A stretch of 64,000 nt of DNA from Spirochaetae bacterium HGW-Spirochaetae-2 (GCA_002839355.1 PGXW01000010.1:11057-75056); one strand, 5' to 3'; shown: positions 30,411-52,631, numbered from the stretch's first letter. Notes: a model not told the origin generated them from the letters alone. A program made the numbers and translations.

Positions 30411-30851
30411 TTACATGACCGTCTCGTACGGCCAGTCTACAATTCCTCCGAAGTCATATACATTCACATAGCCCAACGCAGCAAGCTTGCGTGCAGCCTG
30501 TGCGCTCCTATTGCCACTGCGGCAATAGACGAGGATCACATCGTCCAATTCGGGCAGCTGCCCGGGATTTTGGGTCGTACCGATGGTTTCATTCGGAATC
30601 AGGATTGCTCCGGCAATATGCCCCTGCTCATATTCAGCCTCGGTGCGCACATCCACTATGACCAGCGAATCACCCGAATCCATCATTTCCTTCGCTAATT
30701 GAGGAGAAATCTTCCTGTATTGTGCTGTAATGGCAGTAGCCACGTCAATTCCTTCCTGTCTCGATGAGGACGTAGAGTTGCCTTTACAGGAAATGGCTCC
30801 CAACACCAGACCCAGTACCAGTACCATTGCCGCAAGTTTTACAAAACGCAT
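30411..30851 (-). CDS. rhodanese-domain lipoprotein (sulfurtransferase)
   Basis: Signal peptide with lipobox LGAISC. Active-site loop CRSGNRS. Confidence 0.8.
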   Translation of the reverse strand: MRFVKLAAMVLVLGLVLGAISCKGNSTSSSRQEGIDVATAITAQYRKISPQLAKEMMDSGDSLVIVDVRTEAEYEQGHIAGAILIPNETIGTTQNPGQLPELDDVILVYCRSGNRSAQAARKLAALGYVNVYDFGGIVDWPYETVM

Positions 30852-30977
30852 CCGTATCTCCTCGTACTCACAATATGCAAAAAGGATTGCCCGACGTCAA
30901 GCTTAAGGTGCCGTCGACCGGTCCGATTCATACGAAAAACACCCGGACTTTCCTCAAGAAAATTACTAACCGGCCTA

Positions 30978-31007
30978 TTGACAATTGTACTAATACACTA
31001 GTACAAT
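30978..31007 (+). promoter_or_regulatory. sigma70-like promoter TTGACA-18-TACAAT overlapped by a 9-6-9 inverted repeat ATTGTACTA-atacac-TAGTACAAT (putative GntR/YtrA operator)
   Basis: Located 20-48 bp upstream of the GntR gene start. The GT..AC-type palindrome is typical of GntR-family sites. Confidence 0.5.
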
Positions 31008-31025
31008 CCATCCAGAAGGGTTGAT

Positions 31026-31448
31026 ATGACAAAGGATGCGGACCAGATACCAATCACATTCACTCTCGATTCCAAGAGCGGAATCCCCTACTACAAGCAA
31101 ATCATCCTGCAAGTGGAAATGGCAATTGCGGACGGCCGCCTCTCCAAAGGCGCACGGCTACCGACTGTGCGCAGCCTCGCTGTCGACCTCAGCATCAACC
31201 CGAACACCGTTGCCCGCGCCTACAATGAAATGGAGATCAGGGACATCGTGGTGACACAACAGGGATCGGGAACATTCATAAGCGAGAAACAAATCACCAT
31301 CGATGCAATCGAACGTGAGCGGATCCTCACCGAGATCACCCGCTCATTCATCACAAAAGCGGCTTCCTATGGAATCACCCTCGAAGAACTGTTGGACCAC
31401 ATCCGAGACCTGGGAAGCGATATCGTACCAAAGGGAGACCCCTCATGA
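31026..31448 (+). CDS. GntR-family transcriptional regulator, YtrA-like short subfamily
   Basis: 140 aa. HTH reads PTVRSLAVDLSINPNTVARAYNEME. First gene of a long plus-strand operon. Confidence 0.8.
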   Translation: MTKDADQIPITFTLDSKSGIPYYKQIILQVEMAIADGRLSKGARLPTVRSLAVDLSINPNTVARAYNEMEIRDIVVTQQGSGTFISEKQITIDAIERERILTEITRSFITKAASYGITLEELLDHIRDLGSDIVPKGDPS

Positions 31449-32557
31449 ACCTATTCACACGAAAATTCGAACGCATCAAGAACATGCAGCAGTTCACGTT
31501 GAAACGTGATTTCGCCTTTGGCGCCGTATCATTCTTCATCCTCGCGCTCTTCATCGGCGGCGGCATCTGGCTCCAGATGACCCTTTTTCCATGGATCCCC
31601 TTCGATCCGGTTATCACGTTGGCAGTGATCATCCTCGTGGCGGGACTCTTGGTGTCCCTCGTCCCCATGTGGGCAACCATCATCCAGTTCTGTGTGATCC
31701 TCTGGCTGATCATCCTGGGACATCTAGGCAACGCCCTTTACCCGTTGGGTTTGGCAGGTACCGCCGGCCTGTTGGTCGCCTCATCGGTCCAGCTGATTTT
31801 ACACTGGGACAAGGTGGTGGTATTGCGTATGGGACGTTTCAGGAAGGTGCATGGACCTGGCTTGCTGTTCCTCATGCCCTTGGTGGACCGGATCGCCGAA
31901 TTCGTGGATACCCGCATACGGGCAACCGATTTCAGTGCCGAGAAGACCTTGACCCGCGATACCGTTCCCGTGCATGTAGACGCGCTCGCCTTCTGGATGA
32001 TCTGGGATGCGAAGCATGCGATCCTTGAAGTGGAGAACTATATCGAAGCGGTCATCCTTTCGGCCCAGACCGCGCTCCGCGATGCTATCGGCAAACACGA
32101 CCTCTCCTCCCTCCTCTCCGAACGCGAGGAGCTGGGCAAGGAGATCCAGCTTGCCCTCGATGCCAAGACAAATCCGTGGGGGGTCACCATCCTCTCGATC
32201 GAGATCACCGACATCATCATTCCGAAGGAATTGGAGGATGCCTTGAGCAAGCAGGCACAGGCCCAACGGGAAAAGCAGTCCCGTGTGATCCTGGCGACCG
32301 CGGAGGTCGAGATAGCCAAGCAGTTCGAGGAAGCTGCCGTCATGTACTCGGAGAATCCCACAGCCCTGCAACTGCGGGCTATGAACATGGTGTACGAAGG
32401 AATCCGGCAGAACAACTCCATGATGCTCATGCCGGCATCGATACTGGACAACATGAATTTGGGAACAGTCCTTGGAAGTGCCGCCTTGCAGAAATTGCAG
32501 ACACCCGCACCTGCCAAGCCGGTTGCCACCGAAGAACCGGAAACCGGACGGAGGTAG
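31445..32557 (+). CDS. SPFH/band-7 (stomatin/prohibitin-like) membrane protein
   Basis: 370 aa. N-terminal transmembrane helices, then an SPFH core (VVVLRMGRFRKVHGPGLLFLMPLVDRI...) and a coiled-coil tail. Confidence 0.8.
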   Translation: MNLFTRKFERIKNMQQFTLKRDFAFGAVSFFILALFIGGGIWLQMTLFPWIPFDPVITLAVIILVAGLLVSLVPMWATIIQFCVILWLIILGHLGNALYPLGLAGTAGLLVASSVQLILHWDKVVVLRMGRFRKVHGPGLLFLMPLVDRIAEFVDTRIRATDFSAEKTLTRDTVPVHVDALAFWMIWDAKHAILEVENYIEAVILSAQTALRDAIGKHDLSSLLSEREELGKEIQLALDAKTNPWGVTILSIEITDIIIPKELEDALSKQAQAQREKQSRVILATAEVEIAKQFEEAAVMYSENPTALQLRAMNMVYEGIRQNNSMMLMPASILDNMNLGTVLGSAALQKLQTPAPAKPVATEEPETGRR

Positions 32558-32560
32558 GAG

Positions 32561-33820
32561 ATGCGGTTGATGTTCCTCGTTGTACTGGCATGCAAGAACC
32601 TCACGCGCTACAAACGAAGGACTGTAATCACTGCGGTCACCATAGCGATCGGCTTGATGCTGTTCATCCTGATCGATTCGATCCTGATAGGCGTCGACAG
32701 GGAATCGGTGCGCAATTTGTTGTGGTATGAGACCTCCTCGGTGCGGATCATGGCCACCGGCTATTGGGAAGACCGGTTGATGCTGCCGTTGGATGTATCG
32801 ATCGACGATCCCTATGCAAAGGTTCGGTTGTTGCGGGAACAGGGCTACGACGCGACACCACGGATCATGTTCGCCGCCGACCTTATCCTCTACAGCGAGG
32901 ACTTTGGGGAAGATGGGAATCTCCCTGTCCGGGTGACCGCGGTTGACACGACGTTGGACAACACCGTCTTCCGCTTTGAAGACACCTTGTTGGAGGGACG
33001 TTTCGCCGAAAGCGGCAAGAACGAGCTGGTGATCGGATCATGGATGGCCGAGGACCTGCAGGCCGAGGTCGGGTATTGGGTAACGCTGGTCACCCGTGGC
33101 AATGGAGGATTCTTCGAAGCCATGGACATGCAGATCGTGGGAATCGTCAATTGTCCGAATCCGAATGTGAACCGCTCGCTGCTCATGGTACCGATCGATA
33201 CGATCGCCGATTACCTTGCCATGGAGAATCTGGCCACCGAGATAGACATCTCACTTCCCGAATCGGCCGATGTCGATATCGAGGCTCAAGCGATAACACG
33301 CCTCATGGCCGAATCCGGCAACTCTGCGACGGTCATGACCTGGAAGGATTTGGCCGGAGACTACCTGGCCATGATGCAAGCCGAACGCGGGGGATCGTCG
33401 ACCATGTTGTTCCTGGTGTTCCTGATTGCCGCGGTGGGTATTTCCAACACCATGCTCATGGTGATCAACGAACGGACCCGCGAATTGGGAATGATGCGTG
33501 CGTTGGGAATGGACGACCGGAGCATCCACTGGCTGTTCATGCTGGAAGCAGGAGGAATCGGCTTGTTGGGCTCGTCGATCGGTGTAGCCCTGGGTATGCT
33601 GGCGAACATATATATCGTGCAGGAGGGGTTGGATTTCGGCTTCTTCATGCGGGAAATGGACATGGCCTATCGGGTGCAGGGCATTTTCCGCGGCGCATGG
33701 AGTTTGAGAAGCATTTTGACCACGTTCTTTTCGGGAATTTTCCTTTCCATGCTGGTTGCGTGGATTCCGACCCGACGGGCCATAAAAATGGATATTCCAT
33801 CATGTCTAAGACACCAATAG
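32561..33820 (+). CDS. FtsX/MacB-type ABC permease, LolC-like
   Basis: 419 aa. TM1, a large periplasmic domain, then three transmembrane helices. N-terminus ACKNLTRYKRRTVITAVTIAIGL. Confidence 0.8.
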   Translation: MRLMFLVVLACKNLTRYKRRTVITAVTIAIGLMLFILIDSILIGVDRESVRNLLWYETSSVRIMATGYWEDRLMLPLDVSIDDPYAKVRLLREQGYDATPRIMFAADLILYSEDFGEDGNLPVRVTAVDTTLDNTVFRFEDTLLEGRFAESGKNELVIGSWMAEDLQAEVGYWVTLVTRGNGGFFEAMDMQIVGIVNCPNPNVNRSLLMVPIDTIADYLAMENLATEIDISLPESADVDIEAQAITRLMAESGNSATVMTWKDLAGDYLAMMQAERGGSSTMLFLVFLIAAVGISNTMLMVINERTRELGMMRALGMDDRSIHWLFMLEAGGIGLLGSSIGVALGMLANIYIVQEGLDFGFFMREMDMAYRVQGIFRGAWSLRSILTTFFSGIFLSMLVAWIPTRRAIKMDIPSCLRHQ

Positions 33821-33831
33821 GAGGAGACAAC

Positions 33832-34509
33832 ATGATTCAGGTACAAAACGTTATCCGCAACTACAAGACGGGTGAAACTGTCGTCAAGGCGCTCAAGGGA
33901 GTCTCCTTGGATATTGGGGATGGGGAATTCCTCTCCATCGCAGGACCCTCCGGCTCGGGGAAGACAACCTTGTTGAACCTCATCGGGTGCATCGATGCCC
34001 TAGACGGTGGAGAGATCACCATCGAGGGACAACCGGTCTCGGGTATGGACAAGAAGGCCAAAACGGAGTTCCGTCGCAACAACCTGGGATTCATCTTCCA
34101 GACCTACAACCTCATCCCGGTATTGAGTGCCTTTGAAAACGTATCGTTCGTGTTGTCTATCCTCAACATTCCGGAGAAGGAAATCGAGGAACGGACCATG
34201 CGTATCCTCAAGGAGGTCGGACTCGAGGGGATGGAGAACCGCCGGCCCGATCGGCTCTCTGGTGGCCAGCAGCAACGCATCGCCATAGCCAGGGCCCTGG
34301 TGAAGAACCCCAAGATAGTCCTGGCCGATGAACCGACCGCGAACCTCGATTCCAAGACAGGCGAGGAGATCCTCAAGCTCATGAAGGAGATGAACCGGAA
34401 GTACCATACGACCTTCATCTTCTCCACCCACGACAGCATGGTCATGGACTACGCGAAGCGCCTGGTATTGTTGCACGACGGGCAGATCGTCAGCGACGAA
34501 AGGAGGTAA
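33832..34509 (+). CDS. ABC transporter ATP-binding protein, LolD/MacB-ATPase-like
   Basis: Walker A GPSGSGKTT, signature LSGGQQQRIAIARAL, Walker B LLADEPT. RBS AGGAGG. Shorter start chosen over the in-frame MSKTPIGGDN start. Confidence 0.9.
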   Translation: MIQVQNVIRNYKTGETVVKALKGVSLDIGDGEFLSIAGPSGSGKTTLLNLIGCIDALDGGEITIEGQPVSGMDKKAKTEFRRNNLGFIFQTYNLIPVLSAFENVSFVLSILNIPEKEIEERTMRILKEVGLEGMENRRPDRLSGGQQQRIAIARALVKNPKIVLADEPTANLDSKTGEEILKLMKEMNRKYHTTFIFSTHDSMVMDYAKRLVLLHDGQIVSDERR

Positions 34510-34511
34510 GT

Positions 34512-35765
34512 GTGAGATTCATCATCTCATTGGCCTTGAAGAACCTCTCCCGTTACAAGAGGCGGACAATCATCACCGCGGTGGCGATAGCTGTCGGACT
34601 GATGATGTATATCGTGGTCGATTCGATCCTATTGGGTGCCGAATTCGAATCGATGCGCAACTTGCGCTGGTATGAAACCGCATCGGCCCGTATCATGCAT
34701 CCCGACTATTGGGAAGATCGGTTGATGCGTCCCTTGGACATATCGATCGAGGACCCCTACACCATAGTCGATTCCTTGCGTAAGGAAGGAATCGCGGCCG
34801 CACCCCGCACAATGTTCTCCGCGGACCTGATCCTCTACAGCGAGGACTTCGGTGAGGATGGGCACATGCCGGTCCAGGTGACAGCAGTCGATCCCGAACT
34901 GGACAATTCCGTATTCCGATTCGAGGACACCTTGATCGAAGGGCGCTTTGTCGAGAGCGGAACCAACGAATTGGTGATAGGCTCCTGGTTCGCCGAGGAT
35001 ATCGGGGCGAAGGTCGGCTACTGGGTCACCTTGGTGACCCGAGGCAATGGAGGCTTCTACGAAGCCATGGACATGCAGATAGTCGGAATCGTCAATTGCC
35101 CCAATCCGAACGTGAACAGGACACTGCTGATGGTTCCGATCGATACCATAGGCGATTACCTGGCGATGGAAGGGGCGGCGACCGAGATAAACATCACATT
35201 GCCCGAGAGCGCTAAAATAGCGGAGGAAGTGGCTCGGATCCAGCAACTGCTCGACCCGAACGGCAACAACCTGCTGGTGGTCAGTTGGGACGACTTGGCC
35301 CGCGACTATGTGGCGCTTGCCGAAGCGAAACGCGGCGGAACGGGAATGATCCTCTTCCTGGTGTTCATCATTGCCGCGGTAGGTATTTCCAATACCATGC
35401 TCATGGCGATCTATGAGCGGATCAGGGAGTTGGGGATGATGCGGGCCCTCGGCATGAACGACCGCAGTATCCAGTTGGCATTCATGGTAGAGGCTGGAGG
35501 CATCGGGTTGATCGGTTCGACCATCGGGGTGCTCTTGGGAATCGCAATCAACTTCTACATGGTGAACGTTGGTATCGACTTCGGTCTGCTGATGCGCGAC
35601 ATGGACATGGGGTATCGCATCCAAAGCTCGTTCCGTGGAACCTGGAACCCATCGACCATCATAACAGCCTTCTTCTTCGGATCGATCCTATCCATGCTTG
35701 TGGCTTGGATTCCGACAAGACGGGCGCTGAAGATGGATATTCCATCGTGTCTGAGACACCAGTAA
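34512..35765 (+). CDS. FtsX/MacB-type ABC permease, LolE-like (paralog of 32561-33820)
   Basis: 417 aa, very similar in sequence to the first permease. Together they give the permease-ATPase-permease order of lolC-lolD-lolE. Confidence 0.8.
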   Translation: MRFIISLALKNLSRYKRRTIITAVAIAVGLMMYIVVDSILLGAEFESMRNLRWYETASARIMHPDYWEDRLMRPLDISIEDPYTIVDSLRKEGIAAAPRTMFSADLILYSEDFGEDGHMPVQVTAVDPELDNSVFRFEDTLIEGRFVESGTNELVIGSWFAEDIGAKVGYWVTLVTRGNGGFYEAMDMQIVGIVNCPNPNVNRTLLMVPIDTIGDYLAMEGAATEINITLPESAKIAEEVARIQQLLDPNGNNLLVVSWDDLARDYVALAEAKRGGTGMILFLVFIIAAVGISNTMLMAIYERIRELGMMRALGMNDRSIQLAFMVEAGGIGLIGSTIGVLLGIAINFYMVNVGIDFGLLMRDMDMGYRIQSSFRGTWNPSTIITAFFFGSILSMLVAWIPTRRALKMDIPSCLRHQ

Positions 35766-35777
35766 AAGGAGCAGATC

Positions 35778-37007
35778 ATGACGATGAAATTGATACATGT
35801 GGCATTCCGCAACATTTCGCGGAATCGACGGAGATCCCTCCTCTCGGGTATCGCTATCGCGGTGGCATCCATGAGTATCGTATTCCTCTTTGCCATGGTG
35901 CAGGGGATGCGCGACGATATGGCCCAAAACCTGGCCACCTACTATACCGGGGAGGTGAGGATCCGCAATGCCCAATACGAAGAGTATGAGCGCTACAATC
36001 CAATCCACCTGACCGTCGATTGGCAGCGAATAGACCAGGCGCTCGCCAAACGGTCCGATGTGACAGCCTACGTGCCGCGCATCCTTTTCCCCTCTGCCTT
36101 CTATGTGAATGGGGGCAATCACCCGGCGGTTGGAATCGGAGCAGACTTCTCCCGAGAAGCCGAGTACAGTGATTTCGCGGCCTCCATCAAGGAGGGGCGG
36201 ATTCCCGACGCGGGCAAGAACGAGATGCTCATAGGCTCGGTCCTGGCCAGGGACTTGAAACTGGGTATCGGGGACAAGGTGACGATCATCAGCTCCACCG
36301 CTGCCCGGGGCAACAACGCCATGACCCTTGAGATTGTCGGTCTTGCGGCATTCCCGGTCGCTTCGTTGAATTCGCAATTCTTCTGGGCACCGTTGGATCG
36401 TGTCCAGCATTTCCTGCGCATGGACAACGAGGTCCTGGAAGTATTGGTCATGGTCGAGGACGACGAACGGAAGGCTGCCGCTGCGATCAAGGCGGATTTG
36501 GAACCGCTACTCGGCTCGGCACTGGATATCAAAGCCTTCAACGATATCAGCATGATGTATGGCTTTATCGAGCTCGCGCAGTACATCTACTACTTTATCG
36601 GAGTATTCTTCCTGCTGCTTGGCAGTACGGTGATCATCAACACCACCATGATGGTGATCTATGAACGGATGCGGGAGATCGGAACCCTCGGGGCCCTAGG
36701 CATGCATGGAAAGGAATTGACCCGTCTGTTCTTCCTGGAAGGAGTGTTCATCAGCGCGATCGGTGCCGCTGTGGGCGTATTGGTCGGCGCGGGTATCACG
36801 GTCTATCTCGGGAAATTCGGATTGAACTTCACCGATGCGCTCAGCGGTATCGACATGGAGATTTCCAGCGTGCTGTATCCAAGATTCAATTTATGGACAA
36901 CGTTGATTGTGTATGTCTATTCGGTGGTCATCTCTGCGGCCGCGACGTTGATACCTTCGCGGAAGGCATCCAGGATCGAACCGGTGGAGGCATTGCGCTA
37001 TGTATAG
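35778..37007 (+). CDS. third FtsX/MacB-type permease (divergent paralog)
   Basis: 409 aa with the same topology and a more divergent periplasmic domain. Confidence 0.75.
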   Translation: MTMKLIHVAFRNISRNRRRSLLSGIAIAVASMSIVFLFAMVQGMRDDMAQNLATYYTGEVRIRNAQYEEYERYNPIHLTVDWQRIDQALAKRSDVTAYVPRILFPSAFYVNGGNHPAVGIGADFSREAEYSDFAASIKEGRIPDAGKNEMLIGSVLARDLKLGIGDKVTIISSTAARGNNAMTLEIVGLAAFPVASLNSQFFWAPLDRVQHFLRMDNEVLEVLVMVEDDERKAAAAIKADLEPLLGSALDIKAFNDISMMYGFIELAQYIYYFIGVFFLLLGSTVIINTTMMVIYERMREIGTLGALGMHGKELTRLFFLEGVFISAIGAAVGVLVGAGITVYLGKFGLNFTDALSGIDMEISSVLYPRFNLWTTLIVYVYSVVISAAATLIPSRKASRIEPVEALRYV

Positions 37008-37017
37008 GAGCAACAAT

Positions 37018-37755
37018 ATGAAGATTCGCATGATGGCGATCGTGATGGTCGCCTTGGTATCGATTGCTACTGTCGGAGCTATGTCGGCAGAGGATATTGT
37101 GAGGCAGATGGATGCCCTGGAAACGTTCGACACCTCGTACGCAGAAGGCGAGATCGTCACGACCGACAGGTTCGGTGTAAAGACCAGCACGTTCCGGTCC
37201 TGGTCCCGCGGGGCCTACGACTCGCTGATCGAATTCACCAGTGTTGCCGAGCGGGGACAGAAGGTATTGCGGACCGAGGGCGAGTTGTACCTCTTCTACC
37301 CCGATGCCGAGGAGCTGATCCGGCTGCAGGGAGCCGCGTTGCGCCAGTCCATGCTGGGTAGCGATATCTCGTACGAGGACATGACCGGCGAAAAGGATAC
37401 CCTCTCCCAATACGATGTCAAACTGGTGGGCAACGAACGCATAAGTGGCAGGGATTGCTATATCCTGGAATTCTCAGCGAAGACCAGGACGGTCGCCTAC
37501 CCCATGCAGAAGGTATGGGTCGATACCGGAACCTATATGGTGTGGAAGGGTGAGTTCTCGACCAAGGCCGGTCGCTTGTTGAAGGAGATGGCGGTGTTGG
37601 AGACGATGACGGTCGATAACCGGACCCTGCCGAAAATCACGAAGATCTCGGATAAGATGAAGCGCGACTCGGCGACCGAGATGCGCCTGTCCCGTTTGGA
37701 TATCGATGTCGATCTCGATCCGGTCATCTTCACATTGCAGAATCTTACCTGGTAA
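37018..37755 (+). CDS. LolA-like outer-membrane lipoprotein-sorting / carrier-fold protein
   Basis: About 245 aa with a signal peptide (MKIRMMAIVMVALVSIATVGAMSA). Size and genomic context fit a LolA-like protein. Fold assignment is inferred, not verified. Confidence 0.55.
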   Translation: MKIRMMAIVMVALVSIATVGAMSAEDIVRQMDALETFDTSYAEGEIVTTDRFGVKTSTFRSWSRGAYDSLIEFTSVAERGQKVLRTEGELYLFYPDAEELIRLQGAALRQSMLGSDISYEDMTGEKDTLSQYDVKLVGNERISGRDCYILEFSAKTRTVAYPMQKVWVDTGTYMVWKGEFSTKAGRLLKEMAVLETMTVDNRTLPKITKISDKMKRDSATEMRLSRLDIDVDLDPVIFTLQNLTW

Positions 37756-37766
37756 CTGGAGGTTGT

Positions 37767-38894
37767 ATGAAATTCCTACGTATCACGACACCCGTACTGT
37801 TGGCCCTGTGTTCACTCCTTCCCCTTTCGGCAGCTGCCGATACGGTGGTCGATCTGAATCTCTACCATGTGATGCAGGTGCGTGATACGGGGGAGGAGGT
37901 CTCTTCGCTGTACACCATGGCTGGAGAGGCATCGGTTTCGTTCAAGTCTCCCAACGAGGGCAATGTGCGAGGAGATGTTGCCCTCTCGATAGTCGACATG
38001 TTCAAATCGGGTAATTGGATTCCGGTTGTTCAAATCGACCGGGCATATCTGCGGGTACGCTTTCCTTCCTTCCGCCTCACAGCGGGAAAGACGCGTGTCG
38101 GTTGGGGCGACGGAATGCTATTCAATGCGGCCGACGTGTTGTTCGGCAGCACCGATACGGGGGTCAACCTGCAGGACCAGGAGTTACGCACGTCGACAAA
38201 GTGGCTCACCTCGGTGAATATCCCCTTGGGTGCGTTTTCGTTTGTCGAAGCTGTCGTGGTTCCTCCCGAGGACCTCGCCGATGCGGAATTATGGAAGACC
38301 ACCCTTGGAGCCCGCTACTACACGACAGTGGGCAGCATGAAGGTCGAGACGGGGGCTGCGTATCGGGCGGACCATACCAGTGGCAATCCGACCGGCCAAG
38401 TAGTGTCTCCCTACATCGCTTTGCAGGGGAACGTCGGGGCAGACTGGTATGTGGCGACTTCAGCGAACCTGGCCTATCCCGAGGATATTGCCGAGGAGTT
38501 GAAGGATTCGTGGATGCTCAGCGCCGGGCTATTCCACCTCGTGAATGTGGGGTGGCAAGGGACCCTCTCCTTCCGCCTGGAGACACTGGTGCGTCCGTTC
38601 GGAGACTGGGAAGCCACAAACGAAGCAGACAAGAACTATGGTTTGTATCTCTATCCGGAAATCTCCTATGCCCCGAGCGACACGTGGAGTCTCAGTCTCC
38701 GCTCGATCGTGTCACCTCTGGATATGAGCGCTGTGGTCATGGTCGGTGGCAGCTGGAACGTATTGCAGGGCTTCAGCTTCAACGGCTATGTGACAGCGAA
38801 TGCGGGAGAATCGGACGATGCCTTCCCGTGGCAATCAGCCAGTGCACTGTCACCTTCGGTCTCGGCGACAGTGGGGATGTCGTGGGTGTATTGA
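37767..38894 (+). CDS. secreted hypothetical protein, putative outer-membrane beta-barrel
   Basis: Signal peptide MKFLRITTPVLLALCSLLPLSAAA. Alternating amphipathic stretches and an aromatic C-terminal end (SWVY). Last gene of the operon. Confidence 0.5.
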   Translation: MKFLRITTPVLLALCSLLPLSAAADTVVDLNLYHVMQVRDTGEEVSSLYTMAGEASVSFKSPNEGNVRGDVALSIVDMFKSGNWIPVVQIDRAYLRVRFPSFRLTAGKTRVGWGDGMLFNAADVLFGSTDTGVNLQDQELRTSTKWLTSVNIPLGAFSFVEAVVVPPEDLADAELWKTTLGARYYTTVGSMKVETGAAYRADHTSGNPTGQVVSPYIALQGNVGADWYVATSANLAYPEDIAEELKDSWMLSAGLFHLVNVGWQGTLSFRLETLVRPFGDWEATNEADKNYGLYLYPEISYAPSDTWSLSLRSIVSPLDMSAVVMVGGSWNVLQGFSFNGYVTANAGESDDAFPWQSASALSPSVSATVGMSWVY

Positions 38895-38895
38895 A

Positions 38896-39627
38896 CTACT
38901 CGACAACCCAGTCCGTATAGACCTGGCAGAATCCACCGGGGAAACCAGTTGGAGTTCCAGTAGCCTTGATCAATATCTGTTTCCCACGGTCTTGGCTTGT
39001 CGTCGTGTAGGACTCAGTCGTCTCTCCAACGATCAGTTCCTCCTGTTCCCAATTGTTCGGATCAACCCTGTACCATTGGTACGTGAGACAATCGTCAATT
39101 TGTGTATCTTCCGAATCTACAACGGTAAAAGTTGCCACAAGACCACATCCGACATTGGGAAACATTATGCCAGTATTTGCCATCGAATAATCTAGACTCC
39201 AAGAAATATCGGCAACAATCGTACATTTTGTTGCAAACACCTTGTTGGACACTTCACCATCGAATTCGCCACCAGTTATCGCGAGTCGGAACCAGCCTTC
39301 GTCATCAGGTATAGTCACCCCATAACCAGAAGCGTCAGTCTGAGTGCCAGTTTCCAAAATTCCACTTCCCCCATCGAAATTTACGAAAGTATCGTCTGCC
39401 CCCGTTTGTGAATACTGAACAGTATATCCCGTAGCTCCAAACTCCTCTGGTGTAGCAAACCAAAGGAAAACTTCTGAACTACCGTAAGTATAGTCACTTT
39501 CTTCGTAGTACAGCAAATTCTTGGGATTTAACTCAACCTCGGGCAAATCCGACGAGCCGGTAAGCTCACAACCCATTGCAGTCACCAACACAACCATGCC
39601 CAAGAGAAATAACCATACCTTTTTCAT
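38896..39627 (-). CDS. hypothetical lipoprotein
   Basis: Signal peptide with lipobox TAMGCE. Acidic, Thr/Gly-rich mature part. Start MKKVWLF. Confidence 0.6.
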   Translation of the reverse strand: MKKVWLFLLGMVVLVTAMGCELTGSSDLPEVELNPKNLLYYEESDYTYGSSEVFLWFATPEEFGATGYTVQYSQTGADDTFVNFDGGSGILETGTQTDASGYGVTIPDDEGWFRLAITGGEFDGEVSNKVFATKCTIVADISWSLDYSMANTGIMFPNVGCGLVATFTVVDSEDTQIDDCLTYQWYRVDPNNWEQEELIVGETTESYTTTSQDRGKQILIKATGTPTGFPGGFCQVYTDWVVE

Positions 39628-39761
39628 ACCTATTCCCCTCACAATTTATTGGCAATTTTTATGCCTGTACTATGTATAACACAGAACACAATGATAAATG
39701 ACAATTATTTTGTCATATTAATTGACATTCTAAGAGGTTTTATATGTGGGAATTATACTTT

Positions 39762-42440
39762 CTACCGGTTGAGCAGATCCATGAAACCTTTTTCATCGAC
39801 AGCGCGGGAGAAGAGGAAGCCCTGATATGCCGAGACACCCAAGGATTTTAGGAATTCCAGTTGTTCGAACGACTCTATCCCTTCAACCAGGACAGGAATC
39901 GCCAATTCCTTGGCCATACCAACCATAGCCTTGAGAATAACGCCATCGTCGTTTCCAGGATAATCCTTTATGAACGACCTGTCGATCTTCAATGTATCGA
40001 CATCCAATTCATGCAAATAGCTGAGAGAAGAGAAACCCGTGCCGAAATCATCGATTGCTACCTGGATTTTCTCATCGTGCAACTCTTCGAGCACCGAGTT
40101 CGCTGCCTCTAGGTCGGTAAGCAAGGTCCGTTCGGTCAATTCGATCATCAGACGATCATGGTCGACCCCATAGGATTTCAAGGTACGCACCATGTGGGGA
40201 ACCAAGTCCGCATCCTGCAGTTCGGTCGGACAGAGGTTCATGGATATCCCGATTTGGGAAAAACTCTTCTCCTGCAACTCATTCAGGAAACATACCACTT
40301 GTTCAACGACATACTTGCCCAGACTCCGTTCCAAATGGTTCTGCTCGACAATCGGAATGAACTCTACGGGAGAAAGAGCACCGAGAGTCGGGTGGTTCCA
40401 GCGAATCAACGCTTCCGCACCACGGATCATATTCGTCGAGACATCCACAACCGGCTGGAAATTCACTTTAAGCTGTCGCTTTGCCAACGCTCCGGGAAAG
40501 GCCTGCAGGATCGCATAGTAGCGGAGCAAATGCTCATCGACCGTCTTGTCATACACCAATGCTCCATTTCGTTCGAAATGATCCTGCGCGGCGAGCGCCA
40601 TCCGACACTGGCGGAGCATGGCCGCAGCATCGGGACAGAAAGGGGAAGCTGCGGAAACACCGCTGCGAATCCGTACCAATTGTTTCTTATCGCGCAATCC
40701 AAACGGTTCATCGAACACTTTCTGGACCATCGCGATTTCCTTCGGATCGGTGTGATCGGATACATGCATGGCTAGAAGGAACGTATCGGGTGAATACTGG
40801 ATCATCAGATCGTCTTTCTGCAATGCCTGTGCGATGCGTTCACGTATCTGTGCTCCCAATACATAATGCTCGTCAAGCGAATATTGCGCCTCGATCAAAT
40901 CGATATTCAGTAATTTCAAGTAGACCGACACAAATCCTTTGTCCCGACTTTTCTTCGTTTCCAACAACTGCAAAGGATAGATATCCATTTCATTTGTCGA
41001 TTGATCCTGCGCAAGCACCATCTTCTCAAACGATTCCTTGGAAAGATTCCTGGGATTCGAATAGAGTTCGACGGTATGAATGGCATGGCCTTGGTTGTTC
41101 GAGATACTACTCACACTCAAATGGGTCAGGGCGCAGTGGCGTTTGCCAATTACCCAAAGAAACCCTTGCCAGGATTCGATCGATTGGTTCTGGACCGATG
41201 CGAGTCGCATGACCTTTGCAGATTCGAATTCCTCACCAGACAGGGCCCGGATATCATGCATTCCCGAAAGGATCTCATCGTTCGAGAAACCAGTCATGGA
41301 TTCGAAGGTCCGGTTGCAGTAGGTGACCTGCATCATGGTATCGGTGATAACCACCCCGTCGTGCGATTGGTCGGAGACGAGATTGCTTACCGCCAGCAGT
41401 TCACGGTCGTTCCGCCTGAAATAGGCCAACAGGTTTATGAACCCACCCAGCAGCAGGATCAACACAGCCAGTACCCATCGAAGCGGACGATTGCGCAAGA
41501 GAAACGAATCCTCGAGTACCGTAACATCGTCGTCGGCAAACGACATGACTCCGACAAGAAAATGTGGATGTGTCTCATAGAACGCACTGGCATCAGCAAA
41601 TGGATCGAACGAATGAAAGTGGTAATTCATTCCGTTCATTGAGGCTTCCCCAAAATTTGAACGCACTATCTGATTCCACAATTCGGGAGCCTCCCGAACC
41701 AATGGGTTTTCCTGGGAATCATAGGAACGCATATGGGAACCGTCGGTACGTAGAATCCAATTCCCCTTGCTATCGGCAAGCCCGTAGCGGATCTCGCTCG
41801 GATGGTCGATCAAGAATCGTTCTATCATGGACAAGATATGGTTCCCATCCACCAGCATGCTTATGGTGGCGGAAACTGCTCCGGCTGTATAGACAGGTAT
41901 TGAAGTCCCAATGACCGGAATCTTCGTACCACCATTTGCCAGTGGTACAACGTATGTCAATGGAGAGAAGTAGAATCCCTGCTCTGGAGCAAGTACTACA
42001 TTGGACACCATCTCATACCAGATTCCTGGAAAGGGGACTGTCCCGTAAACGGTTGATCGAATACCACCAAAGGCTGTGAGACCGAATATCGGCTCTCCAG
42101 AATCGCTTCCAAGCGACAATCCATTGATATAGGGGCGATTGTCGGACATCCGCGTGAAGAAAGCCTCCACTTCCTTGCGGTTCATATCCGAAGGGTCGGC
42201 AAGATAATTGACCATTTCGTTGGAATTGCGGATCAAGTGCAACGTCGAATAGTACTCCTCGAATACATTGTTGACCATGTATTCCATGAGCTTCAGGTGC
42301 CCCGTATGTTCCGAGATAACCTTTTCACGGGCGTTCTGCTGTTCGAGCGTGACCAGCTGGGCATACATGAAGAGGAAAAGGACCGCTATAGGTAGTATGA
42401 CGAGAAATCGCTTGGTGATATTCCAAATCAATCGCTTCAT
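39762..42440 (-). CDS. periplasmic-sensor PAS / degenerate GGDEF / EAL c-di-GMP phosphodiesterase
   Basis: 892 aa. TM1, a ~270-aa periplasmic domain, TM2, then a PAS region. No GGDEF motif is present in the GGDEF-like region. EAL motifs EALIRW, DDFGTGFSSLSYL and LKIDRSFI. Confidence 0.8.
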   Translation of the reverse strand: MKRLIWNITKRFLVILPIAVLFLFMYAQLVTLEQQNAREKVISEHTGHLKLMEYMVNNVFEEYYSTLHLIRNSNEMVNYLADPSDMNRKEVEAFFTRMSDNRPYINGLSLGSDSGEPIFGLTAFGGIRSTVYGTVPFPGIWYEMVSNVVLAPEQGFYFSPLTYVVPLANGGTKIPVIGTSIPVYTAGAVSATISMLVDGNHILSMIERFLIDHPSEIRYGLADSKGNWILRTDGSHMRSYDSQENPLVREAPELWNQIVRSNFGEASMNGMNYHFHSFDPFADASAFYETHPHFLVGVMSFADDDVTVLEDSFLLRNRPLRWVLAVLILLLGGFINLLAYFRRNDRELLAVSNLVSDQSHDGVVITDTMMQVTYCNRTFESMTGFSNDEILSGMHDIRALSGEEFESAKVMRLASVQNQSIESWQGFLWVIGKRHCALTHLSVSSISNNQGHAIHTVELYSNPRNLSKESFEKMVLAQDQSTNEMDIYPLQLLETKKSRDKGFVSVYLKLLNIDLIEAQYSLDEHYVLGAQIRERIAQALQKDDLMIQYSPDTFLLAMHVSDHTDPKEIAMVQKVFDEPFGLRDKKQLVRIRSGVSAASPFCPDAAAMLRQCRMALAAQDHFERNGALVYDKTVDEHLLRYYAILQAFPGALAKRQLKVNFQPVVDVSTNMIRGAEALIRWNHPTLGALSPVEFIPIVEQNHLERSLGKYVVEQVVCFLNELQEKSFSQIGISMNLCPTELQDADLVPHMVRTLKSYGVDHDRLMIELTERTLLTDLEAANSVLEELHDEKIQVAIDDFGTGFSSLSYLHELDVDTLKIDRSFIKDYPGNDDGVILKAMVGMAKELAIPVLVEGIESFEQLEFLKSLGVSAYQGFLFSRAVDEKGFMDLLNR

Positions 42441-44167: not shown

Positions 44168-45280
44168 TTAGAGGACCTGCCGTTCAGTGCGCTCCAACTC
44201 GATTTCCTGCGACTCCTTCGCATACCACCGTGGATTCTTGAAATGGATGAAGCAATCGCTTCCTTCGGGGAACACATTGGCATGCGAGGTGTGTATCCGG
44301 ATCGATTGCTTGCCGATTCTGATGTGGTACTCGATACAGAAGGTCATGTAGAGCCGCTTTTCGATCTTCGCAGGGTACCCTCCATCCGCATCCATCGAAA
44401 TATCGATTTCATTCGGTCGCGAGGCAAGCAGACCATCACCATCGGCTACACCTTTGGGCAGCTTGAATGGAATCGGCATGACGGCCCCCCCTTTCGGAAA
44501 GACATTGCCCTTCACCGCCTCCACCTTCAGGAAATTCGACAAGCCGAGGAACCCATACACGAATTTGTTCGTTGGATTCTGGTACAGTTCGTCCGGTGCC
44601 CCAACTTGGACAATCTTGCCCAGATCCATGACCAGCATCCTGTCGGAGAGTGCCATGGCTTCCGATTGGTCATGCGTCACGAAGATGATGGTGAAATTGA
44701 ATTTCTTTTGCAGGGCCTTGATTTCGAACCGCATGGATTCACGCAGCTTGGGGTCAAGATTCGACAACGGCTCATCCAACAACATCACCCGAGGATTGGT
44801 CACAATCGATCGCGCCAGGGCGATACGTTGTTGTTGTCCACCGGACAGGTCCGAAGGATACACCCGCTGTGAACTGAGCAGGTCGGTGTGGGAAAGGGCT
44901 GAGAGCACACGTTCTCGGATCTCATGTTTCGGCAGTTTCATCACCCGCAAGGGAAAAGCCACATTCTCGAATACATTCAGGTGCGGCCATACGGCAAACG
45001 ATTGGAATACCATGCCCAAGCCTCTCTCCTCGGGAGGGACGTACAGATTTTTCGATTTGATGGAAACAGGCTTGTCTCCCAACCAAATCTCTCCTTCCGA
45101 AAGGTCCTCGAAACCGGCGATCATCCGCAAGGTCGTGGTTTTCCCGCATCCGGACGGTCCCAGGAAGGAGAAGCATTCCCCCTCCTTGATCGTCAGATTG
45201 AAATTGTCAACCGCGACAACCCGGTGCCCTCCACGGGTCACAAATTCCTTTGTTACGTTTTTCAGTGTTATCTGGCTCAT
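44168..45280 (-). CDS. ABC importer ATP-binding protein (PotA/FbpC-like) with C-terminal TOBE-like domain
   Basis: Walker A GPSGCGKTT, signature LSGGQQQRIALARS. Confidence 0.85.
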   Translation of the reverse strand: MSQITLKNVTKEFVTRGGHRVVAVDNFNLTIKEGECFSFLGPSGCGKTTTLRMIAGFEDLSEGEIWLGDKPVSIKSKNLYVPPEERGLGMVFQSFAVWPHLNVFENVAFPLRVMKLPKHEIRERVLSALSHTDLLSSQRVYPSDLSGGQQQRIALARSIVTNPRVMLLDEPLSNLDPKLRESMRFEIKALQKKFNFTIIFVTHDQSEAMALSDRMLVMDLGKIVQVGAPDELYQNPTNKFVYGFLGLSNFLKVEAVKGNVFPKGGAVMPIPFKLPKGVADGDGLLASRPNEIDISMDADGGYPAKIEKRLYMTFCIEYHIRIGKQSIRIHTSHANVFPEGSDCFIHFKNPRWYAKESQEIELERTERQVL

Positions 45281-47005
45281 TTACAACCCCTTTCGTTCTT
45301 TTGTGATAAATCGGAGGGCGAGGTTTCCCGCTACGATAATACCAATCGCCACAGTTGCCAAAGCAGAAGCCTGAACGGTATTGCCCTCGGAATTGATTGC
45401 ATAGATCGCAACTCCCAATGTCCGGGTGAACGGTCCATACAACAGTACGGAAGTAGTCAGTTCCCGCATGGCCGGAAGGAATATCAAGAAGAAACCGGCG
45501 ACCATACCCGGCCGAATCAACGGGAGGGTGATATCACGCAAGGATTCCAAGTGTGTCGCGCCACAGGAGCGTGCGGCCTCCTCCAAGGAATAGTGGACCT
45601 GCTCCAATGAAGCCGAAGCCGATTTCATCGCGAAGGAAACATACCGGGCAATATAGGCAATCAGGATAATCCAGATGGTATTGTAGAGGTTGACGCCGAA
45701 AGCACCGCTCCAGACCAGAATAACGCCGATAGCCAACACTATGCCTGGAATCGAGTACGGCAACAACGAGAGTATCTCCAGGAACCCCTTGCCCTTGGGT
45801 TTCACCTTGATGACCACATACGCGATCATTACACCGAGGAACATGGTGATGACACCCGAGGAAACCGATAGGAACAGGCTGTTCACAATCGAATCCTGGA
45901 CCATCTTCGATTGTCCGAGGATGTACTGGTAATTGCGCATCGTAAGATTTTCCAACTTCAACGGCAAGCCGTAGGCTTTGAGGAAACCGACGATGAGGAT
46001 CATGAACAACGGTACCACAACAATAACAAAGAGCGAGACCAAGCTGATCGAAAGCAATGGGATCTTCGCGCCACGAAGCTTGATCAACATGGGGCGCATG
46101 CTCTTTCCCTTGATGATATCGTAGTGGCCTGTCTTGAGCACCAATCGTTGCAGATACAATGCCGCGACCACGACAATGACAAGTAGGATTGAAAGCGATG
46201 CCCCTTCCCTGATTCCTTGGAAACTTCCAGCAGACCGGTTTATCAACTGGTATATCTTGGTCGGCAAGGTGAAGATGTTGTTCGAGAATCCCAGGATAGC
46301 CGGTACGCCGAAGTGGGACAACGACGATATCAATATCAGCATGGCACCTGCCGCGATCGCCGGCAAGACCAACGGGAGTGTGATCTTCCGAATCACGTAC
46401 CATTGGCCGGCTCCGGCAATCCGTGCCGATTCCTCAAGCGTAGGATCCATTCGCTCAAGTGCACTAACCACTTGGAGGAACACGAACGGGAAATAGTAAC
46501 AGGTCTCCACGAACACGATTCCACCGATGGTGTTTATGTTCAGCAATGGGGATGTTCCGCCGGTAAGCTGCATGAAGAGCTTGTTCACGTAGCCTGAACG
46601 TGGCGCCAGCATAAGGCTCCATGCCATGGCTCCAAAGAACGGAGGAAACATGTATGGAATGGTGAAGAGTGCTTTCATGACGCCCTTGAGGGGAATGTCG
46701 CTTCGGCCGATCAACCAAGCATAGAAGAGTCCCAATAGGGTGCCGAACACAGTCACCATGAATGCGATCCGTACGGTATTGATGATCGCCGAGAGGTTTT
46801 CCGGTGCCAGGACCACCTGGGTGAACAAACGCCAATCGAGTTGTGTTCCCTTGAAAAAGGTTCGGATCACAATCATGAGGATAGGAAAGAGGACTGTTAC
46901 GACCAGGATGAGAAGAGACAGGATGAACAAGCCTTGGTCAAGTCCGAAGCGCCGATCTCCCATGGCGGATTTCCTCTGGAACATATGTGTCAAAAAATAT
47001 TTCAT
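45281..47005 (-). CDS. ABC importer permease, fused double transmembrane domain (FbpB/ThiP-like)
   Basis: 574 aa with two homologous six-helix halves. Confidence 0.85.
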   Translation of the reverse strand: MKYFLTHMFQRKSAMGDRRFGLDQGLFILSLLILVVTVLFPILMIVIRTFFKGTQLDWRLFTQVVLAPENLSAIINTVRIAFMVTVFGTLLGLFYAWLIGRSDIPLKGVMKALFTIPYMFPPFFGAMAWSLMLAPRSGYVNKLFMQLTGGTSPLLNINTIGGIVFVETCYYFPFVFLQVVSALERMDPTLEESARIAGAGQWYVIRKITLPLVLPAIAAGAMLILISSLSHFGVPAILGFSNNIFTLPTKIYQLINRSAGSFQGIREGASLSILLVIVVVAALYLQRLVLKTGHYDIIKGKSMRPMLIKLRGAKIPLLSISLVSLFVIVVVPLFMILIVGFLKAYGLPLKLENLTMRNYQYILGQSKMVQDSIVNSLFLSVSSGVITMFLGVMIAYVVIKVKPKGKGFLEILSLLPYSIPGIVLAIGVILVWSGAFGVNLYNTIWIILIAYIARYVSFAMKSASASLEQVHYSLEEAARSCGATHLESLRDITLPLIRPGMVAGFFLIFLPAMRELTTSVLLYGPFTRTLGVAIYAINSEGNTVQASALATVAIGIIVAGNLALRFITKERKGL

Positions 47006-47029
47006 ACTAGTACTCCACTACTTCGGTTG

Positions 47030-48145
47030 TCAAAAGACAAACCGGGGATCTTGTGCGTCAGCCTCATACAACGAGGGGCTGAGAAACTCCACCGCCCTGA
47101 CAGAACCTTCTTCCGGGACGCCCCGGCGGAAAGCCTCCAGGGAATCTTCCTGGACCCGGATCTCGTGTCCACCGATATCGACGATATAGTCGAACTGGTT
47201 GCCAAGGTAGGTGACCCGTTGCACAACGCCCCTGACTACACCGACATCCGTTTCGGACAAGGGGGAAAGTCTGATATCCATGGGTCGGGAAGCCAACAAC
47301 AGGTTCGAACCAAAGGTTTTCGGGATATCGAAGAACGTATTTCCGATTGTCTGGGGTTCTGTCCTCGAGACAAGTCGGACCTGTTCCCGGTCCCTTACCA
47401 GTGGAAGGAAGTTGGAAACCCCGAGGAATGTGTACACATCGCGGTCTGTCGGATGGGTCCATATCTCTTCGGGAGTTCCCAACTGGCGAATTTTTCCAAC
47501 CTTATCCATGATCACCATCCTGTCCGATATGGTCATTGCGGTCTCCTGGTCATGGGTAATATAGATGACCGTCACACCGATGGTCTTCTGGAGATTGCGG
47601 ATCTCATAGGCCATTTCTTCCCTCAGTGTGGCGTCCAGGTTTGTGATCGGTTCATCCAACACGATCAGTTCCGCAGAAGAGACCAAGGCTCTCGCCAATG
47701 CAACCCGTTGTTGCTGTCCACCCGACAATTGCGATGGCAGCCGGTCGGCAAAATCGCTCATCTTGACTTGTGCCAAGGCTGCGTAGGCCCGTTCCTTTGC
47801 CTCGAGCTTGTTTACCTTTCGTTTCTTGAGCGGATAGATGATGTTCTCAATGACGGTGAGGTGTGGCCATACGGCATAATCTTGGAACACCACACCGATT
47901 CTCCGATTCTCCGGGGCGACCATGATCCGTTTTGCTGGAGAGGAAACGACGGTATCCTTGATTACAATCTCTCCGTGCGAAATCTTGATGAATCCACAGA
48001 GCGCCCGCATGAGGGTCGTCTTGCCGCAACTCGAAGGACCGACGATGGCCAGGTTCTCACCTTTCTCAACCTCAAGCGACAACCCTTCGATTACGACATT
48101 CTTCCCATATTGAACGGTGACGTCTTTCATTGCGACAATCGCCAT
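47030..48145 (-). CDS. second ABC importer ATP-binding protein (PotA/FbpC-like)
   Basis: Walker A GPSSCGKTT, signature LSGGQQQRVALARAL. A second ATPase in the same operon. Confidence 0.85.
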   Translation of the reverse strand: MAIVAMKDVTVQYGKNVVIEGLSLEVEKGENLAIVGPSSCGKTTLMRALCGFIKISHGEIVIKDTVVSSPAKRIMVAPENRRIGVVFQDYAVWPHLTVIENIIYPLKKRKVNKLEAKERAYAALAQVKMSDFADRLPSQLSGGQQQRVALARALVSSAELIVLDEPITNLDATLREEMAYEIRNLQKTIGVTVIYITHDQETAMTISDRMVIMDKVGKIRQLGTPEEIWTHPTDRDVYTFLGVSNFLPLVRDREQVRLVSRTEPQTIGNTFFDIPKTFGSNLLLASRPMDIRLSPLSETDVGVVRGVVQRVTYLGNQFDYIVDIGGHEIRVQEDSLEAFRRGVPEEGSVRAVEFLSPSLYEADAQDPRFVF

Positions 48146-48339
48146 ACGTATGCCTCCTAATGAGTTTTGGTAGCGGCTCCAAGGCAGACTTGGAACCGCA
48201 CTTTGATACTATGGTCGGGGTACTCTTTACTCCCATATGGAGCGAGTGCAGGGAACAAAAGGTGCAATACCCCACCCCTTGAGGCCGGCAAGAGGCGAAT
48301 CCTCGTGGATTCGGCTCTTGCCCGGGGTATCGGTACCTT

Positions 48340-49368: not shown

Positions 49369-49461
49369 AGGAACCTCCTTCCTTGTTTCGCATTGTCAGT
49401 ATAGGAAGGTACTATCCATCCCGAAACTGCAAATTCTCACTATCTCGACGATTGTTGAATT

Positions 49462-51672: not shown

Positions 51673-51701
51673 GGTTCAGCCGCAGTATACCATGGGTATT
51701 G

Positions 51702-52061
51702 TCACATGGATTCAGAAAACTGCACCCTGACACCGTCGGGATCCTGGACGTAGAAGAACTTGATATGGTCGTTGGGTTGGAACGGACCGCTTTCCACCAC
51801 AATCCCATGGTCAGCTATGAACGCGAGCGTCTTGTCCAGGGAATCGACCGCAAAGCCAAGTGTAATCCCATTGCCGATGACGAAGGTTCCGCTGGGACGT
51901 TGGATCAATTCGACTTGCGTCTCCCCTGCTCCAAGAAAAGCGATCTCACCATTGGGTCCGGCGTTGAAACGGCGGTTGACCGGCAAGCCGACGATATCCC
52001 TATAGAATGCGATCGATGTATCCAAGTCCTTCACCATGATGGTAGTCCAACAATAGGTCAT
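51702..52061 (-). CDS. VOC-family (glyoxalase/bleomycin-resistance fold) protein
   Basis: 119 aa ([20 protein letters not shown]...). Confidence 0.7.
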
Positions 52062-52610: not shown

Positions 52611-52631
52611 ATTTTACAGGAGGACAATGAA

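Follow-up and report, generated by a model that had tools for sequence, protein, structure and literature searches.

A Probable Repressor-Controlled Envelope Export Operon on a LolCDE-Like Plan in Sphaerochaeta-Like Spirochetes

The genome of Spirochaetae bacterium HGW-Spirochaetae-2, a Sphaerochaeta-like spirochete of the Sphaerochaetaceae, carries an operon in which a GntR-family regulator, a stomatin-type protein, an ATP-binding cassette (ABC) transporter, a LolA-fold carrier and a predicted outer-membrane beta-barrel are encoded side by side. The operon lies in a stretch of 64,000 nucleotides (nt) (GCA_002839355.1 PGXW01000010.1:11057-75056), all of which was analyzed and is called the window here, and positions are counted from the window start. 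An initial annotation had described a Lol-like operon with unusual extras, and every element on that list was recovered in place by open reading frame (ORF) and Pfam calls. Eight co-directional ORFs occupy 31026-38894. Neighboring genes overlap by up to 8 nt or are separated by up to 12 nt, and no convincing terminator was found inside the operon.

All eight genes are on the + strand. The operon begins with a YtrA-subfamily GntR repressor of 140 amino acids (aa) carrying a PF00392 domain (31026..31448), followed by a 370-aa stomatin-type SPFH/Band_7 protein (31445..32557). The transporter genes encode permease P1 (419 aa; 32561..33820), a 225-aa ABC ATPase with a nucleotide-binding domain of the MacB/LolD/DevA type (33832..34509), core permease P2, or permease A (417 aa, type VII ABC topology; 34512..35765), and core permease P3, or permease B, the heterodimer partner of P2 (409 aa; 35778..37007). 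P1 is a paralogue of P2. The last two genes encode a periplasmic LolA-fold carrier of family PF17131 (251 aa; 37000..37755, or 245 aa from an alternative start at 37018) and a 375-aa protein with a signal peptide, modeled as an 18-stranded outer-membrane beta-barrel (37767..38894).

A sigma-70-type promoter, TTGACA-18-TACAAT (30978..31007, + strand), is located 19 nt 5' of the GntR start. It agrees with the consensus at 11 of 12 positions and is the best match, and the only one of that quality, across 30700-39800. As first described, a 9-6-9 palindrome overlaps this promoter. It is a perfect inverted repeat, ATTGTACTA-N6-TAGTACAAT (30984..31007), which fills the promoter spacer and covers the -10 element, and the predicted GntR operator sequence reads ATTGTACTAATACACTAGTACAAT. 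The palindrome occurs once in the window, where 0.01 chance matches would be expected at up to three mismatches.

The arrangement is conserved well beyond this genome. A scan of a genome collection with the carrier alignment, made over species-representative genomes, gave 186 relatives, of which the best 80 were kept, and the eight window proteins were mapped by tblastn onto these 80 and three earlier loci. Every taxon-named locus among the best 80 belongs to a spirochete. The ATPase, P2, P3, the carrier and the barrel are found together in 59 of the 80 distinct loci, the other loci being interrupted by contig ends, and the GntR and SPFH genes are also present upstream in 52 of those 59. This distribution points to an ancestral operon of seven genes with two permeases. 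The conserved core order is YtrA, stomatin, ATPase, permease A, permease B, carrier and barrel, and the operon is more than a chance association.

The operator is conserved along with the genes. At least 16 of the 18 palindrome arm positions are retained in 56 of the 59 orthologous upstream regions, 34-58 nt 5' of the GntR start, in a setting where the 6-nt spacer and the flanks are variable. Because the arms are kept at a set distance while the spacer and flanks vary, the palindrome is a predicted autoregulatory operator of the YtrA-type protein with a strong phylogenetic footprint. The regulator has a GntR winged helix (PF00392, E 5e-15) and no other domain in its 140 aa, and it matches the YtrA-type structures 4ham, 4r1h and 3by6 (113-134 aa) end to end. 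Its short C terminus, which carries no FCD, UTRA or aminotransferase domain, and its predicted binding to a palindrome over its own promoter are those of the YtrA subfamily, in agreement with the initial assignment. The top NCBIfam matches of the protein are Rv1152 and PmtR, a regulator of the exporter of phenol-soluble modulins, both below cut-off.

Further elements are found beside the operator in the relatives. Many orthologous promoters (e.g., L014, L016 and L019-L024) have an extra half-site-like AGTACAAG or AATACAA right after the palindrome, and another group of promoters has TACTATAGT immediately 5' of it. These elements may provide additional contacts for the regulator.

The second gene starts 4 nt within the end of the GntR gene. 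Its product scores 123.3 bits with Band_7 (cut-off 23.6) and has three to four N-terminal membrane helices, with hydropathy peaks at residues 23-41, 55-73 and 101-119. Among known structures it matches stomatins at E 1e-38 and QmcA at 5e-26, compared with only 1e-6 for HflK/C, and it does not reach the NCBIfam equivalog cut-offs for HflK and HflC. The SPFH/band-7 protein of the initial annotation can therefore be called stomatin-type by both score and structure matches. The SPFH gene accompanies the GntR gene in 52 loci and is not present in five loci with a different regulator. In these five (L074, L076, L079, L083 and L084, from deeper-branching Spirochaetia), a TetR-family protein of 225-240 aa stands in place of both YtrA and stomatin, and its gene abuts or overlaps the ATPase gene (e.g., L079 6040-6762). 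This replacement suggests that the five-gene transport core is the unit and that the regulator module is exchangeable. For the YtrA family, the operon offers a clean, conserved operator and a strictly linked, unexplained YtrA-stomatin pair.

All three permeases contain PF02687 (FtsX) and PF12704 (MacB_PCD) above the cut-offs and have the features of the type VII ABC superfamily. Hydropathy gives one helix at about residues 21-43 and three between about 270 and 400, and in P2 the periplasmic domain that lies between them has about 230 aa. The ATPase scores 121 bits with ABC_tran, and its translation retains intact Walker A, signature, Walker B and H-loop motifs. P1 and P2 are 70% identical, while P3 is only 27-28% identical to either of them. 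No FtsX permease beyond these three was found in the 64-kb window.

The initial annotation had viewed P3 as a third, divergent permease that extended a lolCDE set. This was not borne out: P3 is a universal core subunit, represented by 72 sequences in the related loci, always as a single copy at the same position. P2 is likewise found in every complete locus. The lineage-specific extra permease is P1, the paralogue of P2, which is found upstream of the ATPase only in the clade of the window (six further loci) and in L046. Its orthologues are mutually 67-74% identical, which indicates that the P1 copies are maintained.

Duplication of permease A is a recurrent event. More than one P2-type gene was found in 19 loci, in four positions: ahead of the ATPase, behind the barrel, in between carrier and barrel, and upstream of the regulator. 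In a neighbor-joining tree each set of extra copies clusters with the core P2 from its own genomes. The window-clade P1 sequences form a group with a bootstrap value of 93, sister to the window-clade P2 group with 95, and their joint node has a value of 54; the post-barrel copies, the Oceanispirochaeta copies and the L046 pair each receive 100 and the L052 pair 81. Since the extra copies group in this way, at least five independent duplications of permease A took place, against none of permease B.

The proposal of an accessory specificity subunit is thereby kept in an altered form, attached to the duplicated P1 and no longer to the divergent P3. A concentration of P1/P2 divergence in the periplasmic domain, as expected for a switch in specificity, was not found, the two proteins being 63-72% identical in every region. 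With divergence this even, the specificity idea rests only on the pattern of duplication. Because only permease A is duplicated repeatedly, one may speculate, by analogy with the Lol system, that permease A is the subunit that selects cargo, like LolE, with permease B as the unchanging partner on which the carrier docks, like LolC. Under that speculation, the repeated duplication of one of two permease subunits is a natural experiment pointing to the cargo-selecting subunit.

The Lol-like architecture that was first described holds in part. Two unlike FtsX permeases are present with one separately encoded ATPase, as in LolCDE (P2 and P3 are always found with one ATPase gene), and a LolA-fold protein is encoded next to them. 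The NCBIfam profile lolCE (TIGR02212) is the top model for all three permeases (E 1e-28 to 1e-35, compared with 1e-5 to 1e-10 for MacB and FtsX), but the scores of 107.5 bits for P1, 98.8 for P2 and 122.6 for P3 are all three- to fourfold below the equivalog cut-off of 362.45 bits. The ATPase likewise scores 222.8 bits with LolD (TIGR02211, cut-off 307.75), 223.6 with DarD and 215.0 with DevA, all below cut-off. Together with a dedicated and swappable repressor, these scores set the operon apart from the Lol system.

LolC-specific hook residues were looked for by aligning the permeases with E. coli LolC and LolE from MG1655. In work attributed to Kaplan et al. 2018, the E. coli LolC hook (P167-P179) and the pad residues R163, Q181 and R182 reportedly dock LolA. 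In an alignment at 17-19% identity, the hook and pad are absent from all five aligned spirochete permeases: R163 aligns to T, a six-residue deletion falls at the hook, and the positions of Q181 and R182 lie within this deletion. The test is a soft one because the alignment identity is low. A tree with E. coli LolC, LolE, MacB and FtsX was saturated, with permease distances of 2.5-3.0, compared with 1.6 for LolC-LolE and 1.9 for P2-P3, and profile scores were used for placement instead. In sequence searches of the PDB, LolE, LolF, YtrF and MacB came out about equally distant (E 1e-11 to 1e-14), and YtrF, the top match of P2, aligns over the C-terminal membrane region only.

The alternative description of the locus, a MacB-like module under local repression, fits better than Lol but is also incomplete. 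The permeases score only 30-37 bits against the MacB equivalog cut-off of 966, and the ATPase is separate and not fused, so the operon does not have the makeup of MacAB-TolC. None of the eight operon proteins has an HlyD, biotin-lipoyl-like or OEP domain by Pfam, and no gene of the membrane-fusion or TolC type accompanies the transporter.

The carrier is a member of PF17131 (LolA_like, TP_0789-like; E 1.7e-45), with a score above the gathering threshold and a signal peptide with no lipobox cysteine. It has an open beta-barrel fold with extra strands and is of the type known as LolA3. Structure comparison thus bears out the LolA/LolB-superfamily fold that was first suspected, but the protein belongs to the separate branch PF17131 and is not a canonical LolA. 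Membership in the LolA family PF03548 combined with nearest structural neighbors among LolA proteins was not found for the carrier. Even to LolA3 (P. gingivalis PGN0947, PDB 9tp6; F. johnsoniae Fjoh_0605) its sequence identity is only 18%. The most conserved stretch, YPDAEELIRLQGAALRQSMLGSDISYEDMTGE (residues ~100-131; window 37300-37395), is largely retained in the homologues from Persicobacter and Burkholderia, and it may form a mobile lid or a partner-binding loop.

A literature search on TP0789, PF17131 and "LolA-like + FtsX" found no functional account of the family. LolA3 lacks the LolA arginine and the LolB leucine and binds LolB very weakly, and in P. gingivalis it coexists with a true LolA, with its own function being unknown (PMC13103446). 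Deletion of LolA3 in F. johnsoniae left gliding and type IX secretion unaffected and gave no lipoprotein-related phenotype (PMC11885536).

The last protein of the operon had been called outer-membrane-like, a view supported by its signal peptide, its ...SWVY end and a high-confidence model of an 18-stranded barrel of the OprD/AlgE/Wzi class. It has no Pfam match at any threshold, and the gathering scores of DUF1302 (PF06980) and Wzi (PF14052) are not reached. An exhaustive profile search showed that the family comprises 405 clusters at 50% identity, a few members of which have sub-threshold Wzi or DUF1302 matches. Its best-conserved segment, at R103...D123, R-L-T-x-G-K-T-R-x-x-W-G-x-G-x-x-F-N-A-x-D, follows strand 5 in a long non-strand stretch of the model and is predicted to be an inward-folded loop.

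Related gene sets are also found outside the spirochetes. A Persicobacter replicon has, in order, TetR, a 378-aa outer-membrane-protein-like protein, the ATPase, two FtsX genes and a PF17131 carrier that is 31% identical to that of the window. The 378-aa protein was considered as a homologue of the barrel family, but the match lacked significance (hhalign E 0.2-0.4). Burkholderia, Ralstonia and two metagenome contigs (L091 6956-12057, L092 7001-12102, L093 7001-12117 and L094 4073-9126) have, in order, the PF17131 carrier, the ATPase, an 830-aa permease in which two FtsX units are fused, and a protein of about 380 aa with a faint DUF1302 signal. This last protein aligns to the spirochete barrel profile over 237 columns with an hhalign probability of 68% (E 4.7e-5), including G-x-x-R-x-x-W-G-x-G-x-x-F, and its homology to the barrel is moderately supported at the level of profile comparison.

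The neighbors of these four clusters include YHS/P-type ATPase, multicopper oxidase, ICMT, UbiB kinase, VTT/DedA and AdoMet synthase genes, and transposases adjoin one of them. The surroundings look like metal or stress islands.

Taken together, these features are best explained by a repressor-controlled, self-contained envelope export module that follows the LolCDE plan and is not the Lol system, a reading to which a probability of roughly 0.6 can be given, for the architecture and regulation as proposed. By analogy with characterized transporters, two copies of the ATPase would power an asymmetric type VII pair of P2 and P3, with P1 interchangeable with P2. Movements of the periplasmic domains would pull a hydrophobic or acylated cargo from the outer leaflet of the inner membrane and pass it to the soluble PF17131 carrier. 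The carrier would in turn deliver the cargo to the 18-stranded barrel, where it would be inserted into the outer membrane or cross it. The regulatory steps are better supported than those of transport: the YtrA-type protein would bind the palindrome and keep the whole operon, including its own gene, off until a signal arrives. The stomatin-type protein probably organizes or senses the membrane around the transporter.

The cargo is tentatively suggested to be a lipidic envelope component made by the cell (a lipid, a glycolipid or a subset of lipoproteins), an identification with somewhat less than an even chance of being right. The suggestion draws on the LolA-type fold of the carrier, on the lipid-related neighbors of the proteobacterial clusters and on the cell-wall export proposed for DUF1302/DUF1329 genes, which show cofitness with an RND exporter (bioRxiv 10.1101/072470).

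Several points weigh against an envelope export module. Local repressors of the YtrA and TetR type are more typical of efflux and detoxification than of building the envelope. The hand-over from permease to carrier, and from there to the barrel, is deduced from gene linkage and from the analogy with LolCDE-LolA. Residues 102-131 of the carrier are the only part of its AlphaFold2 model with a predicted local distance difference test score below 50. Finally, the nearest structural neighbors of the barrel include the uptake channels OprD/Occ, chitoporin and maltoporin, and the fold therefore does not settle which way transport runs.

The regulatory argument leads to detoxification, the alternative to be taken most seriously although it is unlikely. 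Exogenous amphipathic toxins such as antimicrobial peptides, bile-like detergents, solvents or lipophilic antibiotics, having partitioned into the inner membrane or the periplasm, would be expelled through the barrel, and the toxin or the damage it does to the envelope would release the repressor. A YtrA- or TetR-type repressor directly upstream is the usual signature of efflux, and the matches of the GntR protein to PmtR and Rv1152 in NCBIfam and of P2 to YtrF in the PDB (part of a YtrA-controlled B. subtilis transporter) point in the same direction, as do the metal- and stress-resistance neighborhoods of the proteobacterial versions. Repeated duplication of one permease would also suit a widening of substrate range. 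An efflux pump of this kind would, however, have to work with no membrane-fusion protein or TolC-like duct in its operon and with a barrel dissimilar to TolC. A soluble LolA-fold carrier is slow and stoichiometric and better suited to acylated cargo than to bulk efflux, and about 80 species loci show vertical conservation of this chromosomal system. If the operon were only an inducible efflux device, it would still be unusual in design, lacking both an adaptor and TolC.

It is very unlikely that the operon encodes the housekeeping Lol pathway, with P2/P3 as LolC/E, the ATPase as LolD, the PF17131 protein as LolA, the barrel replacing LolB and P1 as an accessory specificity subunit. The order permease-ATPase-permease, the two unlike permeases, lolCE as the top NCBIfam model and the superfamily fold of the carrier all favor such an assignment; the organism also makes lipoproteins, judging by the lipobox-bearing neighbors at 30411-30851 and 38896-39642, and spirochetes have been described to be without LolB (PMC11326224). 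The same study counts against it through canonical-type LolA homologues in 150 diverse spirochetes, including environmental ones (PMC11326224), and the carrier falls in the LolA3 group, whose P. gingivalis member exists beside a true LolA (PMC13103446). The lolCE and LolD cut-offs are missed and the hook and pad are absent. An essential pathway would also be improbable behind an autorepressor that is swapped for TetR in relatives.

Least probable of all is uptake, in which the barrel would admit a hydrophobic nutrient such as a fatty acid, a sterol or a lipid, the carrier would ferry it inward and the ABC complex would insert it into the inner membrane. Besides the channels among the closest solved barrels, this scheme could appeal to DUF1302/DUF1329 mutants of Pseudomonas putida, which have fitness defects on fatty esters (bioRxiv 10.1101/2020.07.04.188060). 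By Pfam, no solute-binding protein or importer-type permease is encoded in the operon, and its ATPase does not have the C-terminal regulatory domain present in the two importer ATPases of the window. By what is established for MacB and LolCDE, type VII ABC transporters lack a substrate path across the membrane and work outward from its surface, which also argues against uptake.

As an envelope export module, the locus is best filed among the type VII ABC trans-envelope systems, as a member of an uncharacterized cross-phylum module around LolA3-type carriers, with YtrA-stomatin control and an interchangeable permease paralogue. LolA3-type carriers are here seen in a set module with their own ABC extractor and barrel, which gives context to a carrier family lacking an assigned role. 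A bolder and rather doubtful extension is that the PF17131 carrier, a type VII ABC extractor and an 18-stranded Wzi/DUF1302-like barrel would make up a widespread LolB-independent fourth route for lipidic cargo beside Lol, Lpt and Mla in Spirochaetota, Bacteroidota and Pseudomonadota. A stomatin-YtrA gate would control it in the Sphaerochaeta lineage, and the exchange of paralogues of one permease subunit would tune its cargo range. The stomatin-YtrA pair would read the state of the membrane, given that YtrA proteins lack a ligand domain.

The surroundings of the operon in the window contain several other features. On one side, a rhodanese-domain protein with a lipobox-like signal peptide is encoded at 30411-30851 (- strand). 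On the other, a convergent gene at 38896-39642 (- strand), 1 nt from the barrel stop codon, encodes a 248-aa protein with a lipobox-like signal peptide and no Pfam family. It is followed by a gene at 39762-42440 (- strand) for an 892-aa dCache-PAS-EAL protein, likely a sensor-linked cyclic di-GMP phosphodiesterase by its domains, in which Pfam detected no GGDEF-like middle part. The positions of the 248-aa and EAL genes are retained in Pleomorphochaeta (L004). An ABC importer cluster at 44168-51672 (- strand) has two 370-aa ATPases of the importer type (44168-45280 and 47030-48145, both - strand), of which one carries a TOBE domain. A 574-aa double BPD_transp_1 permease and a solute-binding protein complete the cluster, and it is adjoined by a 736-aa dCache-AraC regulator.

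The region 52001-56000 has a G+C fraction of 0.43-0.44, compared with about 0.52 elsewhere, and may be an acquired island. In this stretch a SatD-family protein (53325-54152) overlaps a DUF3307 protein (54149-54907), and the ORFs at 51699-52220 and 55378-56064 have no Pfam match. Further on, 56281-57621 (+ strand) encodes a 446-aa Mbeg1-like protein (PF11187, E 6e-78), and Pleomorphochaeta has a homologue of it some 9 kb downstream of its own copy of the operon (L004 19706-20875).

Among characterized systems, the E. coli LolCDE-LolA-LolB pathway is the obvious comparison. It has the same two unlike permeases of the FtsX/MacB fold, the separate ATPase and the soluble open-barrel carrier. In the window, however, the endpoint is an integral barrel of 18 strands and not the lipoprotein LolB, the carrier belongs to PF17131 and not PF03548, and the operon is repressor-controlled and encodes a stomatin, in addition to the profile scores below cut-off and the missing hook and pad. 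The published studies of LolA3 were found to contain no dedicated barrel link or gene neighborhood (PMC13103446, PMC11885536). In Porphyromonas and Prevotella, operons of TetR, ABC, MMPL and a "lipoprotein-sorting protein" are reported with an MMPL/RND transporter plus ABC ATPases, in contrast to the FtsX heterodimer of the window.

A parallel within the spirochetes is the cluster BBJ23-BBJ29 on lp38 of Borrelia burgdorferi, for which ATP-driven export of a nonpolar ligand was proposed from structure predictions (Biosci Rep 2026, PMC13078400). Like the window operon, it places a MacB-like ABC transporter with a barrel and with a LolA-like protein that bears a type I signal peptide, and the ATPase, permease and carrier genes follow one another in that order (PMC13078400). 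It differs in having one permease gene, proposed to form a homodimer, an Omp85-type barrel and TPR proteins, and neither a YtrA nor an SPFH gene is present. Clear homology is limited to the ATPases, at 37% identity, and the permeases, with BBJ27 about 22% identical to those of the window. Orthology of the carrier and barrel was considered and rejected: BBJ28 is not a PF17131 protein and has no significant similarity to the window carrier (BLASTP E 0.13), and BBJ25 has no match to the barrel. BBJ29 (L095 8008-9009) stands directly after the LolA-like gene, the position that the barrel has in the window, and is the only member of the published cluster with no proposed function; its score with the barrel profile is a nonsignificant 5 bits.

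MacAB-TolC shares the MacB_PCD and FtsX fold, a MacB-family nucleotide-binding domain and the principle of mechanotransmission. In the window the ATPase is unfused, the permease is a heterodimer, and a carrier and a porin-like barrel replace the adaptor and the duct. The DUF1302/DUF1329 systems of Pseudomonas and Shewanella, with an RND (MMPL-like) partner, are alike in combining a LolA-superfamily periplasmic protein and a barrel with an inner-membrane exporter. The segment G-x-x-R-x-x-W-G-x-G-x-x-F is common to both barrels, and faint DUF1302 matches are found among the relatives of the window barrel. The energy is supplied by RND there and by ABC in the window, and DUF1302 barrels are larger (a profile of ~540 positions). 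The barrel has no significant sequence membership in the families of Wzi, AlgE or OprD/Occ. To our knowledge, none of these works with an ABC transporter or a LolA-fold carrier.

For regulation, the parallels are B. subtilis YtrA-ytrBCDEF and S. aureus PmtR-pmtABCD, in which a short autorepressor gene of the YtrA subfamily is likewise the first gene of an ABC-exporter operon. These hosts, however, are monoderm, and their operons have no carrier or barrel and other permease sets. The components of the spirochete operon are familiar, and it is their combination that gives the carrier family a context.

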